17,246 nucleotides of DNA from Methanobacteriaceae archaeon (lineage in GTDB: Archaea > Methanobacteriota > Methanobacteria > Methanobacteriales > Methanobacteriaceae), in NCBI GenBank assembly GCA_003558085.1, contig PWMT01000170.1, positions 1 to 17,246 on the forward strand. Reading direction: 5' to 3'. How positions within the stretch are numbered: the first letter of the stretch is position 1; each line of letters begins with the position of its first letter. The translations under genes and the position numbers were made by a program. The notes beneath the pieces are model-generated. The model did not search any database. It was not told where the DNA came from and was given only the letters and a program-made list of their open reading frames with translations. Below, in pieces: positions 2,016 through 7,378 of the stretch.

Positions 2016-3265
2016 AGACAAAGTCATTGCTCTTATTTTTATTAATTATATTTTTGACTATTAATACTGCTTCTGCTACCTTAAATGTAGTTATCATAAG
2101 TGATCCTACAGGTGAAGACCCTAACGGGGCTGCAGGGGGTAGTATGTCCTTTGCCCAAGATATGTTTCAATCTACTTTCCTGCTTTCTCGAGAACAACAA
2201 TTTGTTGTACTTTCTGGTGGTGAAGGCGATGCTGTTTCCAGATTAGGCGCTATTGTATCATCTATCAGTCGATTAGAGAGAGGATCTACAGCTGCAGAAG
2301 GAGCCGCAGCAGCTGGTTCATTTGCAGGAATAAGGATCATGACTGGTGGACCCGGTATTGGGGCGGCAGTAGGAGGATCCTTTGATGCTTATTTGGTGGT
2401 GGTAGATGCAGATGATACTATCAGCGTCACCCCTGTCTCAGGTGGACTGGCCACTTTAGCTCCTGGGGAAAGAGGAGCAATAATACACCTTAGAAATACT
2501 CCAGGAAACCCTCAGTATGGTACTGCAGCCAGAGTTAGAAGAGATACTGCCATAAATATTGGAAGAATGATTCGTGATGGTTATTCCGCCACCACTATCA
2601 TGGGAGAGGTTTTTGAACAAGTAGCTAAACAATCCGGTGAAAAACATGGTGGGGGTGCCGTTAATTTAAATTCAGGGATAACTACAGGAGATATGTTTAC
2701 CCCTGGCGATTTAGGTGAATATGGGTACCCCATGGATCAACCTTATAGAAAAGTTTGTCCTGTTGATGGATGGAATGTAGGTTTTCCCACTGCAGAAACT
2801 TATGAGGTTTGCCCCATTGATGGGAGTCCTTTAAAAACTGTTTATGCTTATGAGGCTTTAGCTGATGCCATTACTGTAACCAAAGACAGTATATCGGTTT
2901 CAGTATATGGTAGTGATGAAATGGGAGTCACCGAGACCACCAGGGAAGTAGTAAGAGCTGCTGTGCGTAGAGAGGGATATAATCCTAATTCCATAGCTGA
3001 ATCTTTAAATCGAGCCATTGATAATGGTTATATTGTGGGGGTAGATCACGTAGAACCTAAAGATATAAATGCTGTTGAATCAGCCCGAGCAGTTGGTGTT
3101 TATTATAATCCTTTACCTGGTGATAGGACTTCTCCGCCCTGGGACTTGCCGGTAAGTTCCAGTGTGCTGAATATCATCGGAAACATACAAACAGCCATCG
3201 GATTTGTGCTGGTTCTGCTGGTTCTGTTTAGAAGCAGTTTAATCACCTCCTTTAAAAGAAGGTAA
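2012..3265 (+). CDS. Hypothetical exported protein with signal peptide, paired CPxDG motifs and C-terminal membrane anchor
   Basis: TTG start overlaps the upstream TGA (TTGA) behind a G-rich SD; signal peptide ending TASA; CPVDG...CPIDG; C-terminal hydrophobic helix followed by KRR. Confidence 0.85.
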   Translation: MKTKSLLLFLLIIFLTINTASATLNVVIISDPTGEDPNGAAGGSMSFAQDMFQSTFLLSREQQFVVLSGGEGDAVSRLGAIVSSISRLERGSTAAEGAAAAGSFAGIRIMTGGPGIGAAVGGSFDAYLVVVDADDTISVTPVSGGLATLAPGERGAIIHLRNTPGNPQYGTAARVRRDTAINIGRMIRDGYSATTIMGEVFEQVAKQSGEKHGGGAVNLNSGITTGDMFTPGDLGEYGYPMDQPYRKVCPVDGWNVGFPTAETYEVCPIDGSPLKTVYAYEALADAITVTKDSISVSVYGSDEMGVTETTREVVRAAVRREGYNPNSIAESLNRAIDNGYIVGVDHVEPKDINAVESARAVGVYYNPLPGDRTSPPWDLPVSSSVLNIIGNIQTAIGFVLVLLVLFRSSLITSFKRR

Positions 3266-4409: not shown

Positions 4410-4461
4410 TTAATAAAACCAAGATAATATCAATAAAAGTTATATGGAGTGTTCTCATAAT

Positions 4462-5694
4462 ATGGAAAAATCCTCCCCAAGTGTTTTGAAGAAAATTGAA
4501 GAACTAAAAAAAGAAATTAGATTACTTAAAGAAGAAAATACTAAATCTAAACGTAACCTGATGTGGAAAGTAAGAAAACTGGAAAAAGATAAAGTTTTAA
4601 TTGAAAACGAAAAAATTAGGATGGATAGGGAAGTTAAATCACTTAGAGGTGAAGTGGAAAGATTTAGATCTCCTCCTTTAGTGATTGCCACTATCACCGA
4701 AGTTTTAGATGATCATCGGATTGCGGTTAAAAGTAGTACTGGACCTCACTTTGTAATTAATTACTCACGATTTATAGATGAAAAATTATTGGAACCTGGT
4801 GCACGGGTAGCATTAAATCAACAATCATTTAGTATTGTAGATGTTTTACCATCTGAAAAAGATCCGGTAGTAACAGGAATGGAAGTGGAAGAAAAACCCC
4901 TGGTATCTTATGAGCAGATTGGTGGTTTAGATGATCAGGTAGTGGAAGTTAAAGAAACTGTGGAATTACCTTTAAAAAAACCTGAACTCTTCGAGAAAAT
5001 AGGTATTGAACCACCTAAGGGTGTACTATTATATGGTCCTCCTGGTACTGGTAAAACTTTACTGGCTAAAGCAGTAGCCCATGAAACTAACGCCACTTTT
5101 ATAAAGATCGTGGCTTCTGAATTTGTTCGAAAATATATCGGTGAAGGAGCCCGTCTGGTGAGGGGTGTCTTTGAAATGGCCAAAGAAAAATCACCTAGTA
5201 TTATATTTATAGATGAAATAGATGCAGTTGCTGCTAAAAGATTAAAAAGCTCTACCAGTGGAGATAGAGAAGTACAAAGAACTCTAATGCAATTATTAGC
5301 TGAACTAGATGGTTTTGAAACCAGAGGAAATGTAGGTATCGTGGCTGCCACTAACCGACCTGACATTCTAGATCCTGCTCTTTTAAGACCAGGACGATTT
5401 GATCGATTCATCGAGGTTCCCATACCCAACGTAGAGGCTAGAAAAGAAATTTTAAAAATACATACCATGAACATGTCTTTGGCTGAAGAAGTAGATATTG
5501 ATCTTTTATCCACCATGACTGAAGGTGGGTCTGGAGCGGACCTGAAAGCCATAGGTACCGAAGCAGGTATGTTCGCCATCCGTGATGAAAGAGAAGAAGT
5601 TACCATGAATGACTTTATCAATGCAGTGGATAAAATAATGGGTATTGAAACTGAAGAGGAATATAAAAAAGAAGCTGGAGTAATGTTTGGCTAA
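4462..5694 (+). CDS. pan: Proteasome-activating nucleotidase (AAA+ ATPase)
   Basis: N-terminal coiled coil, RSPPL/OB domain, Walker A GPPGTGKT, Walker [30 protein letters not shown]. Start placed at ATG 4462 because of SD GGAGTG at 4446-4451 (ORF track starts at 4444). Confidence 0.97.
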
Positions 5695-5722
5695 ATTTAT
5701 TTTAATATAATTTTAAATTAAA

Positions 5723-5778
5723 GCCGATGATGAACCCTATGAGCTCTGATCAATGATGAATGATGGGCGATCTGAGGC
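5723..5778 (+). ncRNA. Box C/D 2'-O-methylation guide sRNA (sR-tMet-like)
   Basis: Box C ATGATGA 5727-5733; 12-nt guide ACCCTATGAGCT 5734-5745; box D' CTGA 5746-5749; box C' ATGATGA 5753-5759; 12-nt guide ATGATGGGCGAT 5760-5771; box D CTGA 5772-5775; terminal stem GCC/GGC. It is a GC-richer island in an AT-rich spacer. Confidence 0.93.
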
Positions 5779-5811: not shown

Positions 5812-6552
5812 CTAAATTTCAAAAAGATCCCCTAAAACTCTTTTTTTATCAGTTTGAATCAGAGAAGGAATTTTTCCAAGGGTGCCTGCAGATTCGCCTA
5901 CTATAATTAACACCCCCTTCATATATTCTTTATGATCATCTGCTTTAAGTAGGCCATTTTGAACCGCATCTGAATCAGATTCATCTTTAACTTCATTAGC
6001 TATGCTGGTGGCTATAGCATCAGCTATGCTGGCTTGATCAGCAAATACAGTGACGGAATCTGCTCTTCCAAAACTTATAGAATGGCCTATGGTTCCAGAA
6101 GAGGTACATATGCCCTGTGGTCTGGGGGAGGATTTAATTTCAAATCCTATTTTACCCGATAGAGAAGAAGCTCCCGCATAAAGCCCAGTTATTATTTTTT
6201 TATTTGTTTTAATGGCTATATCTCCTCCGTTATCTACTATGGAATATTTGGATCCTTTTTTTAATAAATAATGCAAAGTTAACTCGGCTATGGTTCCGGC
6301 AACAGCGGCCATAGGCCCAACTTCTGCTTTTTTACTAGCACGCTCCATCATTTTTACAATTAAAGGAACTTCAAATTCCCCAGGCTCTCTGATAACTGGT
6401 TCAAGTGAATTTTTAAAATCAGGATTTCTTTTAATATAATTTATTAGCTTCCAACGCTCCTTTAAGATAAAAGAGTAAATATCAGAATATTCCTTATCTG
6501 TACTTAAATTTATGTGGGTTTCACCAATAGAAATTTGCTGTCTGATCATCAT
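5812..6552 (-). CDS. UPF0280 family protein (ApbE superfamily)
   Basis: Motifs [16 protein letters not shown] and [19 protein letters not shown]. Confidence 0.9.
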
Positions 6553-6718
6553 TCTTAGTTTATATATTACCCTACAAATATGCTTAGCAAATTATTTTAT
6601 ATTTGGCGAGCCAATCCAGTTTACAATTTTACTAAACATATTAGGTGGTTAACTAGATTATAGAAACCACTATTTAATTCCATAAAAGATATTAAGGTGG
6701 TAAGGATAGTATGATACA

Positions 6719-7378
6719 ATGATAGGAAATAATAGAAACCAGTATTCCAATGAAGAAAAACTAATATTTAAGGCCAGGCCCCGTATTTTCATGCATAGTA
6801 AATCTGTCCTAATCAAACTAATTCTTATTGGACTGTTAATTTACTTTATAAACCCCATCATCTCCTTAACGGTAACTGTGCAAAGTATCTTAATAGAATA
6901 TGTACAGGTACCTCTAGTACAGCTGACCACTACCTTGTTAATATTTATACTATTTCTACTGGTAATGTGGGCGGTATGGGATCTAATATCCTGGCATTTT
7001 ACAGAATACATGCTCACCGATCAGAGGATAATTGTTCAAAAAGGTGTTCTCAACAAGAAAAGGTCTAATATTCGCTATAATAAAATTCAAGATATGATCA
7101 GCTATCAAAGCCTAATGCAGCGAATCTTTGCTTGTGGAGATATTGAAATATACAGTGCACATAGTAACACCACCCTAATAATGGAGAACATACCCCAGCC
7201 TTATCAGTTAGAAAATAAAATTAATCGCATGATAGATCAGAAATTATCCTCTACTGAAATTGCTCGAGAAATAGAAAAAGAAATTCAAGGCGAGGTTGAA
7301 GAAGAACCCTTTGAGGAGATACCTAAACCAAGTAGAAAACCAATAATGGATCGACATTCAAAAAAGTTTAAGCGATAA
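6719..7378 (+). CDS. Membrane protein with bacterial PH (bPH_2/YdbS-like) domain
   Basis: Two N-terminal hydrophobic segments, then YMLTDQRIIVQKGVL...IQD...QSLMQRIFACGDI. Confidence 0.8.
   Translation: MIGNNRNQYSNEEKLIFKARPRIFMHSKSVLIKLILIGLLIYFINPIISLTVTVQSILIEYVQVPLVQLTTTLLIFILFLLVMWAVWDLISWHFTEYMLTDQRIIVQKGVLNKKRSNIRYNKIQDMISYQSLMQRIFACGDIEIYSAHSNTTLIMENIPQPYQLENKINRMIDQKLSSTEIAREIEKEIQGEVEEEPFEEIPKPSRKPIMDRHSKKFKR

Follow-up and report, generated by a model that had tools for sequence, protein, structure and literature searches.

Box C/D guide RNAs for the wobble C34 of elongator tRNA-Met are already known from Pyrococcus (sR49), from Haloferax (sR-tMet), from the Rfam family sR41 and from 18 tRNA-Met guide candidates (Grosjean 2008; PMC2584109, Additional file 5). 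Pyrococcus sR49 is a stand-alone ('exonic') C/D sRNA and the predicted guide for Cm34 of elongator tRNA-Met (Clouet-d'Orval et al. 2001; PMC2584109, PMC7994747); its pairing takes in intron bases, so that methylation has to precede splicing (PMC2584109, section 13). In haloarchaea, Cm34 is formed by aFib, Nop5 and L7Ae with sR-tMet (Joardar 2011; table in PMC4033218), and the guide in the intron of archaeal pre-tRNA-Trp is likewise directed to the wobble C34 of an intron-containing precursor, with intron bases paired (PMC2584109). Human SNORD97 and SCARNA97 are box C/D RNPs that guide Cm34 of elongator tRNA-Met(CAT) (Vitali and Kiss 2019; PMC6601510). Because this relation of guide to target was known from Pyrococcus sR49, from Haloferax and from the 18 candidates across archaeal orders, which may already include members of the Methanobacteriales, the initial annotation of the locus described here had set its novelty too high.

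We analysed a stretch of 17,246 nt from a Methanobacteriaceae archaeon (hereafter, the window), in which positions 5723-5778 very likely encode a stand-alone archaeal C/D guide RNA; its D′ guide is predicted to direct Cm34 formation in tRNA-Met before splicing, and its D guide to direct Cm2558 formation in 23S rRNA. To the described systems its sequence would add two features: the Met guide lies in the D′ rather than in the D slot, and the D guide fits helix 92 of 23S rRNA, with C2558 at the N+5 position.

The locus is a textbook archaeal box C/D sRNA, with a 3-bp terminal stem, perfect C, D′, C′ and D boxes and two 12-nt guides (Table 1), and in this the sequence agrees with the initial annotation, as it does in the distance of 28 nt from the stop codon of pan, which ends at 5694. 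The sequence elements of the class are present: terminal boxes with a short stem, a D′ and a C′ box in the interior with only a few nucleotides between them, and guides of around 10-12 nt, both of which offer at least 9-10 nt of complementarity to a stable RNA and a site at N+5. The minimum free energy (MFE) fold of the sRNA contains five pairs between both guides (z = -0.5). The protein machinery is encoded in the same genome, where the gene for fibrillarin (297.8 bits) adjoins that for Nop5 (209.5 bits) on contig C165 and two L7Ae-family genes occur.

Table 1. Features of the sRNA locus and of the adjoining pan gene, in window coordinates.
Feature	Position	Strand	Basis or remark
pan (proteasome-activating nucleotidase) ORF	4444..5694	+	TIGR01242 match, 627 bits (cut-off 500)
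A+T-rich gap of 28 nt from pan stop to sRNA; candidate promoter or processing region	5695..5722	+	sequence
Box C/D sRNA gene, whole	5723..5778	+	about 56 nt including terminal stem
Terminal stem, 5′ half GCC (pairs with GGC, 5776-5778)	5723..5725	+	sequence; paired in MFE fold
Box C, AUGAUGA (ATGATGA in DNA), after a single G	5727..5733	+	sequence
D′ guide, ACCCTATGAGCT / ACCCUAUGAGCU, 12 nt	5734..5745	+	antisense to G30-A37 of pre-tRNA-Met plus 4 intron bases; C34 at N+5
Box D′, CUGA (CTGA)	5746..5749	+	sequence
D′-C′ spacer, UCA (TCA), 3 nt	5750..5752	+	length and sequence vary among relatives
Box C′, AUGAUGA (ATGATGA)	5753..5759	+	sequence
D guide, ATGATGGGCGAT / AUGAUGGGCGAU, 12 nt	5760..5771	+	core, nt 2-11, at 5761-5770; fits 23S U2555-A2564
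Box D, CUGA (CTGA)	5772..5775	+	sequence
Terminal stem, 3′ half GGC	5776..5778	+	sequence, alignment, MFE fold

The initial annotation had read the D′ guide as antisense to a Met anticodon loop, with N+5 on the C of CAU and GGGU as the start of a 37/38 intron, and had proposed a search for the corresponding intron-bearing tRNA gene. Such a gene exists. The 11-mer GCTCATAGGGT has two sites in the genome, namely the antisense of the guide itself and C167:454-464, and the latter lies in the anticodon loop of a tRNA gene (C167:423-531) to which the Rfam tRNA model assigns 58.7 bits, with a 37-nt insertion in that loop. With introns enabled, ARAGORN reports it as tRNA-Met(cat) with a 35-nt intron; in default mode the program found no tRNA in L002, and the intron option was required. 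The gene reads CACGG CTCATA / GGGTATT...GGGAT / A CCGTG, which places the intron between positions 37 and 38 and makes GGGT its beginning. Counted upstream from box D′, the fifth nucleotide of the guide is base-paired to the C of the CAU anticodon, which puts C34 at N+5, and the 5′ end of the guide, ACCC, faces the intron start GGGT, so that the pairing reaches into the intron. The complete duplex consists of 11 Watson-Crick pairs and one G.U pair, at G30. This is the only intron-containing tRNA-Met(CAU) of the genome and, among the 39 ARAGORN tRNAs compared, the only partner in a 12-pair duplex; the next best tRNA reaches 8 pairs, and the four other CAU tRNAs pair with the guide over only 8 positions. 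Duplex energies were -21.3 kcal/mol for the precursor, -10.7 for the spliced tRNA and -10.8 for the initiator. When the anticodon arm is folded with the intron, CUCA pairs with UGGG in a bulge-helix-bulge (BHB) motif; the MFE fold of the whole pre-tRNA yields no cloverleaf, and in it the intron pairs with the D-arm.

From what is established for the family, the sRNA would assemble with L7Ae, Nop5 and fibrillarin, and its D′ guide would pair with the precursor of the single elongator tRNA-Met from G30 or G31 to A37 and over three to four bases at the start of the intron, GGG(U). This would set the wobble C34 against guide base five, counted upstream from box D′, and fibrillarin would then convert it to Cm34. 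Since three to four of the pairs involve the intron and the spliced tRNA is left with only 8, methylation would have to precede splicing, an order that the initial annotation had proposed and that PMC2584109 (section 13) also states on account of intron pairing. Moreover, the central helix of the bulge-helix-bulge in the precursor contains C34, so guide and splicing endonuclease would have to act sequentially. The intron would also set the elongator apart from the initiator and the remaining CAU tRNAs, and these three to four pairs suggest a rationale for retaining an intron in tRNA-Met. We infer transcription, RNP assembly and both methylations.

A strict regular expression for the C-guide-D′-spacer-C′-guide-D layout matched exactly one site when both strands of the entire 1,855,722-base genome were scanned, and none in 40 mononucleotide shuffles, with an analytic expectation of about 3 × 10−4. 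When up to two box mismatches were tolerated, the intron of tRNA-Trp was the sole additional site, and three shuffles gave 0, 1 and 1 matches, each with at least one mismatch. The guide in this 68-nt intron (contig C77:14201-14343; TGAAGA...CTGA...TGATGA...CTGA) and the present sRNA are the only two C/D guides found by the scan of this genome. Both are directed to the wobble C34 of intron-containing precursors, which makes the class a clean minimal system, suited to asking which roles of C/D RNPs are indispensable.

The motif TGATGA-N3-6-TATGAG-NN-CTGA, covering box C, the D′ guide and box D′, was present in 201/201 sampled genomes of the phylum of the window (4 families and 29 genera, among them Methanobrevibacter, Methanobacterium and Methanosphaera); a reversed control pattern occurred in 0 genomes of the same sample. 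Across an alignment of 49 records, guide and boxes are 98-100% conserved and the flanks 30-60%, and the D′-C′ spacer is variable, measuring 3 nt in 31 records, 4 nt in 15, 5 nt in two and 7 nt in one. The GCC and GGC of the stem enclose the boxes in 47 of the 49, with three columns per side scoring 1.0 (rounded); a box C of the form R-TGATGA was present in 49/49, but these records were chosen by a regular expression that demanded it. The tRNA-Met introns of five relatives begin with GGG. Among the matches listed there are three guide variants, two with T at nt 1 (G024 and G127) and one, G199, that reads ACTC and retains the G.U pair. Guide nt 1 and intron base 4 showed no covariation, and the introns of G024 and G127, starting GGGC and GGGT respectively, leave the T uncompensated; guide and intron start are nearly invariant, and for this reason their pairing draws no covariation support within the class. 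Structural work has set a limit of 10 bp on the guide duplex. The uncompensated variants at nt 1 fit this limit, yet they are no positive evidence.

Like Pyrococcus sR49, the present sRNA is stand-alone, addresses C34 of tRNA-Met and includes intron bases in its pairing, whereas sR49 belongs to another lineage, to a hyperthermophile with dozens of sRNAs, and the Rfam model of that name (RF01303) scores the present sRNA at 20.6 bits (gathering score 50). The predicted role, Cm34 formation on intron-containing elongator pre-tRNA-Met with aFib, Nop5 and L7Ae, is that of sR-tMet from Haloferax volcanii, which the initial annotation had cited in agreement with the table in PMC4033218. Haloarchaeal versions, however, have degenerate boxes and a D′-C′ spacer of 19-21 nt (PMC2584109), in place of the perfect boxes and 3-nt spacer found here. 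The guide for pre-tRNA-Trp sits inside the intron of its own target, whereas the present one is a separate gene that would act in trans; SNORD97 and SCARNA97, unlike this archaeal sRNA, are eukaryotic and cooperate as two guides and, going by the abstract of PMC6601510, do not depend on intron pairing. The consensus of Rfam sR41 (RF01126) has the same Met anticodon-loop guide, intron-pairing CCC included, as its D guide, GCCCUAUGAGcg ahead of CUGA. In sRNAs of that type (31 sRNAs) a variable, A-rich D′ guide accompanies it, whereas here the D′ slot holds the Met guide and an invariant guide of rRNA type fills the D slot.

At gathering score, Rfam gave zero matches within the window. In E-value mode, the stretch aligned over its full length with many archaeal C/D families, the best being sR1 (43.0 bits; gathering 45), with sR2 at 39.2 (42) and sR47 at 32.7 (40). 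Rfam C/D models are guide-specific, and scores below gathering therefore weigh against the named families, not against membership of the class. RF01126 itself recovered at gathering score 5 of 18 archaeal loci with a Met guide (Methanothrix, Methanoperedens (2), Methanomassiliicoccales and Methanolapillus) and scored the window at 27.5 bits (gathering score 54); the relatives' loci L044 and L137 had no gathering-score match to any C/D sRNA family. The sRNA therefore shares with the Met guides the antisense to the anticodon loop, C34 at N+5 and the pairing into the 37/38 intron, but neither the gathering score and D slot of sR41 nor the degenerate boxes and long spacer of the haloarchaeal subtype: it works like the Met-guide family but falls outside the RF01126 covariance model. 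With 55 nt and shared boxes, guide sequence alone cannot separate homology with sR49 or sR-tMet from convergence. The Rfam scores below gathering and the failure of default ARAGORN to report the tRNA-Met make it likely that both genes lack annotation in the genomes of methanogens, gut and environmental alike, that are relatives of Methanobrevibacter, Methanobacterium and Methanosphaera.

The genome of the window contains no assembled 23S rRNA and only a partial 16S rRNA, and the target of the D guide was therefore read in relatives. The core of this guide, TGATGGGCGA, is invariant in 48/48 Methanobacteria-type loci and matches the rRNA loci of three relatives once each, at 23S TCGCCCATTA; between 84 and 124 of 5000 shuffled guides (1.7-2.5%) did equally well. 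Alignment to E. coli places the site at U2554-A2565, with C2558 at N+5, and the core at U2555-A2564, on the 3′ strand of helix 92. The guide forms 10 pairs with 23S rRNA, one of them G.U, arranged as eight consecutive Watson-Crick pairs, the G.U and one further pair, just below the criterion of nine consecutive Watson-Crick pairs applied in PMC4644070. Of 13 relatives' genomes, 3 had a 23S match. In a comparison of five relatives' genomes, four of them single-contig, the recurring match outside the sRNA was the site in the 23S gene in G005, G008, G012 and G024, the matches of G003 being unplaced; the perfect-complement variant recurred nowhere among the five. In the genome of the window there is no perfect complement of the D guide besides the guide itself, and seven sites with one mismatch and two perfect sites of the 10-mer core (C56 and C157) were discarded, none lying in a recognisable stable RNA. 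We also rejected tRNA targets for this guide, as the best matches to the 39 tRNAs either came to 9 pairs with wobbles or fell in flanking sequence.

Most likely, the D guide is no orphan, its invariant 10-nt core being predicted to pair with 23S U2555-A2564, in the A-loop helix 92 on its 3′ side, and to direct Cm2558; this is the weaker of the two assignments. According to PMC7994747 (section 4), tRNA-targeting sRNAs of Pyrobaculum have one orphan guide, a generalisation that a conserved second guide would counter. Our literature search returned no description of the present sRNA in Methanobacteria, nor of a guide for 23S C2558. The G fixed at nt 3 of the guide is unaccounted for if 23S rRNA is the sole target.

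The same guide module (C or C′ box, N, TGATGGGCGA, N, CTGA) occurs in 38/61 genomes of the phylum of an Altiarchaeales genome and in 16/151 genomes of that of a Methanosarcina genome, so the predicted Cm2558 site, of which we met no mention in the literature searched, would have a guide common to three archaeal phyla. The Altiarchaeota sRNA has an identical arrangement of C′ box, N, UGAUGGGCGA, N and box D, but its partner D′ guide (core GAACAACC) aims at 23S U2552 and not at tRNA-Met: it complements 23S GGUUGUUC, with U2552 at N+5, in 18/20 loci read. Together with the shared module, this suggests a double guide on helix 92; the order of the guides is reversed in 2 of the 20 loci. For the partner guide of the Methanosarcina-phylum sRNAs, A(A)AGGGAGAGU, no consistent site was found in the rRNAs compared, all from other phyla (Methanobacteria and Altiarchaeota), and the comparison was set aside as uninformative. 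The match TGATGGGCGAACTGA in the Methanosarcina genome (L181) is without a C′ box and was taken as chance.

An alternative target for the D guide, instead of or besides 23S C2558, is C1402 of 16S rRNA, in helix 44 of the decoding centre, which is 2′-O-methylated in bacteria (m4Cm) and also at the equivalent eukaryotic site. The 16S rRNA of relatives carries ACCGCCCGTCAC, where guide nt 2-10 form eight Watson-Crick pairs and one G.U with C1400-A1408 and place C1402 at N+5 (numbering checked on E. coli rrsH), and the duplex with CCGCCCGUCA of helix 44 equals that with 23S rRNA in energy (-17.2 and -16.8 kcal/mol, respectively). Guide nt 3, moreover, is G in 103/103 sequences from three phyla (48, 39 and 16), making a Watson-Crick pair with 16S C1407, whereas A would better suit 23S U2563. 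On the other hand, the invariant A at nt 11 pairs with 23S U2555 and mismatches 16S C1399, the invariant U at nt 5 forms a Watson-Crick pair with 23S A2561 and a mere wobble with 16S G1405, and the ...GAG guide variant has three mismatches in the 16S 12-mer. The Altiarchaeota partner guide also argues for 23S rRNA, its U2552 lying 6 nt from C2558 in the usual double-guide arrangement (PMC4644070). On balance, methylation of C1402 by this guide seems unlikely, and we consider it improbable that the invariant UGAUGGGCGA is a compromise sequence serving both 23S C2558 and 16S C1402. If the dual target were true, one 56-nt RNA would mark the wobble base of tRNA-Met, the A-site helix of the large subunit and the P-site of the small subunit, in a genome where the scan found only two C/D guide RNAs.

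The D′ guide, for its part, might act on mature CAU tRNAs generally (spliced tRNA-Met, initiator and tRNA-Ile2), with the four intron pairs incidental, as all five CAU tRNAs carry GGCUCAUA or GCUCAUA and offer 7-8 pairs that include C34 at N+5. This is very unlikely, because the 8 pairs with a mature tRNA (-10.7 against -21.3 kcal/mol) are fewer than the 9-10 generally needed (PMC4644070), the intron-pairing CCC is kept throughout the class and recurs in most tRNA-Met guides of other archaea (xCCCTATGAG), and the precursor is the substrate in the published view (PMC2584109). Methylation of C34 in tRNA-Ile2 could, besides, clash with the C34 modification proper to that tRNA. It is harder still to credit that the stretch is not a guide RNA but a chance cluster of box-like sequences or an element of the pan 3′-UTR, given the chance count of around 3 × 10−4 per genome, the conservation of the motif throughout the sampled phylum while its flanks drift, and the exact fall of the guide complement in a tRNA anticodon loop. 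What favours this reading is position: the sRNA follows pan closely on the same strand, and pan lies upstream, on the same strand and within 400 nt, in 37/47 relatives' loci, often with gaps of just 20-30 nt. A sigma-70 promoter and terminator scan is inapplicable to archaea and has no bearing on 5695-5722. In the two metatranscriptome assemblies with the locus, the contigs span only pan and stop inside it, at 5658 and 5647, and such contigs cannot reveal small RNAs. Co-transcription with pan and processing, a route by which sRNAs can arise, would agree with this linkage; a 3′-UTR element and guide function are therefore not mutually exclusive.

The initial annotation had described a box C/D sRNA with four perfect boxes, two 12-nt guides and a 3-bp stem, and all these anatomical details were correct on the + strand, as was the 28-nt gap after the stop codon of the preceding gene, identified with NCBIfam as a proteasome-activating nucleotidase (pan). 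A strict pattern of the full layout gave a single match in the whole 1.86-Mb genome and none in 40 shuffled genomes, with an analytic expectation of ~3e-4. The box arrangement is far beyond chance, and the presence of a box C/D sRNA is confirmed. In the Rfam check that had been proposed, the stretch did not match any family at gathering score, but in E-value mode it aligned over its full length with several archaeal C/D families, the top matches being sR1 (43.0 bits versus a gathering score of 45) and sR2 (39.2 versus 42).

Coordinates and 5'-to-3' composition of the candidate sRNA and positions of related features
Feature	Coordinates	Strand	Sequence or basis
Whole box C/D sRNA	5723-5778	+	sequence reading
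5' stem and following base		+	GCC, G
Box C		+	AUGAUGA
D' guide (tRNA-Met guide)	5734-5745	+	ACCCUAUGAGCU
Box D'		+	CUGA
Spacer		+	UCA
Box C'		+	AUGAUGA
D guide (second guide)	5760-5771	+	AUGAUGGGCGAU
Box D		+	CUGA
3' stem		+	GGC
pan gene	4444-5694	+	NCBIfam
Complement of D' guide (11-mer)	contig C167:454-464		within tRNA-Met(CAU) gene

The genome has adjacent fibrillarin and Nop5 genes on contig C165, and two L7Ae-family genes. When the boxes were relaxed to at most two mismatches, the whole genome yielded only one extra site, the intron of a tRNA-Trp gene, leaving two C/D candidates in all. This tRNA-Trp(CCA) gene lies outside the window (C77:14201-14343, − strand), and its 68-nt intron is a box C/D guide with the layout TGAAGA, 11 nt, CTGA, 8 nt, TGATGA, 12 nt, CTGA.

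The 11-mer complement of the D' guide occurs at exactly one other genomic site, inside a tRNA gene (Rfam tRNA, 58.7 bits) whose anticodon loop holds a 37-nt insertion; the genome thus contains the tRNA gene that the annotation had called for. ARAGORN missed this gene in default mode and, with introns enabled, reported a tRNA-Met(CAU) interrupted by a 35-nt intron. The gene sequence is ...CACGG CUCAUA / GGGUAUU...CCUGGGAU / A CCGUG... (slashes, intron borders), which places the intron between positions 37 and 38 and has it begin, as anticipated, with GGGU. Guide and precursor form 11 Watson-Crick pairs and, at G30, one G.U; counting upstream from box D', the fifth guide base lies opposite C34 of CAU, the N+5 site originally proposed. 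Four other CAU tRNAs, probably the initiator, two tRNA-Ile2-like species and an odd copy on contig C89, share with the target only GGCUCAUA or GCUCAUA, allowing 8 paired positions. The predicted duplex energy was −21.3 kcal/mol with the precursor, compared with −10.7 once the tRNA is spliced and −10.8 with the initiator. Since the precursor duplex is far stabler and the other CAU tRNAs offer 8 pairs, the start of the intron supplies both stability and specificity, so methylation would have to precede splicing; the annotation had expected this order, and the relevant passages of PMC2584109 likewise have intron bases joining the guide pairing and methylation coming before splicing. These results support the interpretation of the D' guide as a predicted Cm34 guide, directing C34 methylation of the intron-containing pre-tRNA-Met.

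Contig C89 carries at least five tRNA genes (6467-7094, ARAGORN), among them the extra tRNA-Met(CAU) and a second tRNA-Trp, both lacking introns, whose sequences look different from those of the other archaeal tRNAs of the genome; the contig may be foreign or a mobile element. On contig C56 (2625 bases), the G+C-rich sequence around 679-688 looks out of keeping with a genome of 35% G+C, and this contig may have been binned here as a contaminant.

In the precursor fold, CUCA (positions 32-35) pairs with UGGG of the intron, probably forming the central helix of a bulge-helix-bulge splice motif with bulges UA/G and AU/A. Because the C34 region would lie inside this helix, guide binding and endonuclease recognition would be mutually exclusive, and the guide RNP and the splicing endonuclease would have to act sequentially on pre-tRNA-Met. 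Additionally, in locus L002 (the tRNA-Met gene at C167:423-531) and in relatives L167-L170, the middle of the intron (GUGCUCUGAC; GAUGCUCUAACC in G012) could pair with the D arm, being the complement of its 3' strand (GGUUAGAGCGCAC). This pairing replaces the cloverleaf in the MFE fold of the precursor; it may reflect a conserved alternative structure or have arisen by chance in MFE folding.

To examine conservation, one genome per species was scanned with a pattern that joins C box, box D' and the guide stretch complementary to the anticodon loop, a search for which we calculated ~1000 chance matches over the whole collection and which returned at least 120 loci. Among the 120 loci listed, 19 were complete sRNAs whose D' slot held the Met guide; 18 of these listed matches also had the window-type D-guide core (at least 12 of them in Methanobrevibacter, Methanobacterium or Methanosphaera), and the nineteenth, from a Thermoprotei genome, had another D guide. 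In the sample of the window's phylum, the motif was present in 201 of 201 genomes (4 families, 29 genera; reversed control, 0), a count that, these genomes being kin, shows retention and not 201 independent events. Among the matches listed there (60 more were counted beyond these), all but eight were identical to the window motif, the exceptions being five second, chance-like matches and three guide variants. An alignment of 49 records (48 window-type, window included, and one Thermoprotei) showed boxes, stem and both guide cores to be 98-100% conserved, versus 30-60% for the 40-nt flanks; the D'-C' spacer varied in sequence and in length (3-7 nt). In 37 of 47 loci, pan was the upstream neighbour at a distance of at most 400 nt and in the same orientation; of the ten other loci, two have too short an upstream sequence for a judgement. 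The gap is often only 20-30 nt in relatives' loci, so co-transcription with pan followed by processing is as plausible as an own promoter.

Nucleotides 2-11 of the D guide (UGAUGGGCGA) are invariant in 48/48 loci, and nt 1 (A or C) and nt 12 (G, A or U) vary. Guide-substrate duplexes are limited to 10 bp in archaeal C/D RNPs; this limit fits the invariant core with variable ends, and would explain why T variants at the first position of the D' guide are uncompensated. In the window's genome, neither a perfect D-guide complement nor a convincing tRNA target was found; the assembly lacks 23S rRNA, and the target was read in relatives. In three relatives' rRNA loci the core had one match, 23S UCGCCCAUUA (9 Watson-Crick pairs and one G.U), equalled by composition-matched shuffled guides in 84-124 of 5000 trials. 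Alignment to E. coli rrlH placed the 12-mer at U2554-A2565, in the 3' strand of helix 92, which immediately follows the A loop, with C2558 at N+5. In five relatives' genomes (four single-contig), the match fell inside located 23S genes in G005, G008, G012 and G024; the matches in G003, where no 23S match was found, are unplaced. In the smallest relative genome, the matches were two 23S copies, the sRNA itself and nothing else.

The same module (C or C' box, N, UGAUGGGCGA, N, box D) was found in 38 of 61 genomes from the phylum of the Altiarchaeales genome G204, as the D guide of a complete sRNA in 18 of the 20 loci read (L183-L201; genomes G212-G235), with the guide order swapped in the other two, L182 and L196. 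Its partner there has the D' core GAACAACC, an exact complement of 23S GGUUGUUC in that phylum (five loci) that puts the conserved methylation site of the A loop, U2552, at N+5; this sRNA is thus predicted to be a classical double guide on helix 92 (U2552 and C2558). In the phylum of the Methanosarcina genome G201, the module occurred in 16 of 151 genomes, and in the six loci read (L208-L213) it occupied the D' slot beside a different, conserved D guide, A(A)AGGGAGAGU, which had no target in the Methanobacteria and Altiarchaeota rRNAs examined. Members of the window's class combine the module with the tRNA-Met guide. Its occurrence in three phyla with different partners indicates that the UGAUGGGCGA guide is, as judged from these sequences, old and functional, and has been recombined.

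We consider it probable that the D guide targets 23S C2558 alone. Helix 44 of 16S (CCGCCCGUCA) pairs with guide nt 2-10 at a predicted energy equal to that of 23S, with C1402 (numbering checked) at N+5. Moreover, guide nt 3 (window 5762) is G in 103/103 sequences from three phyla, although the search patterns in the two other phyla permitted A, and this G forms only a wobble with 23S U2563, with which A would pair better, and a Watson-Crick pair with 16S C1407. However, guide nt 11 is always A and nt 5 always U, the bases optimal for 23S, and the Altiarchaeota partner guide is directed at helix 92; methylation of 16S C1402, instead of 23S or in addition, seems to us rather unlikely. That the D guide serves some target or role other than 23S or 16S is a lesser possibility than 23S C2558 alone.

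The Cm34 guide mechanism is already established for archaea; above routine are the class-wide retention of the sRNA, the minimal two-guide C/D repertoire found by genome scan, the combination of a tRNA guide with a probable rRNA guide in one sRNA, and a predicted 23S Cm2558 guide common to three phyla, with an unexplained fixed G.U. According to the passages of PMC2584109 on tRNA-Met guides, a separately encoded C/D sRNA for Cm34 of intron-containing tRNA-Met was first predicted for Pyrococcus sR49, a finding repeated in the corresponding part of PMC7994747, and there are 18 candidates across archaea, haloarchaeal ones having degenerate boxes and a long D'-C' spacer compared with 4-10 nt in other orders. 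The Haloferax sR-tMet, which the annotation had named as a Cm34 guide, appears as such in the table of a review (PMC4033218), credited to Joardar et al. 2011.

The sRNA is predicted to act in the manner of sR49, sR41 and sR-tMet. The Rfam sR41 model has GCCCUAUGAGcg as its consensus D guide, whereas here the Met guide is in the D' slot. This model, the one curated membership test, reached gathering score in 5 of 18 archaeal loci tested and was failed by the sRNA, both in the window (27.5 bits versus 54) and in two relatives' loci tested. Likewise, 31 D-slot Met-guide sRNAs had variable, A-rich D' guides, unlike the conserved second guide found here. Slot and second guide together set the sRNA apart from the sR41 model and the D-slot sRNAs compared. 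In a Methanothrix MAG (L027:3677-3883 and 3153-3207), the intron of a tRNA encodes a C/D RNA (Rfam sR3, 53.6 bits), and this gene is ~500 nt away from the sR41-type tRNA-Met guide of that genome, making the two wobble-methylation guides neighbours.
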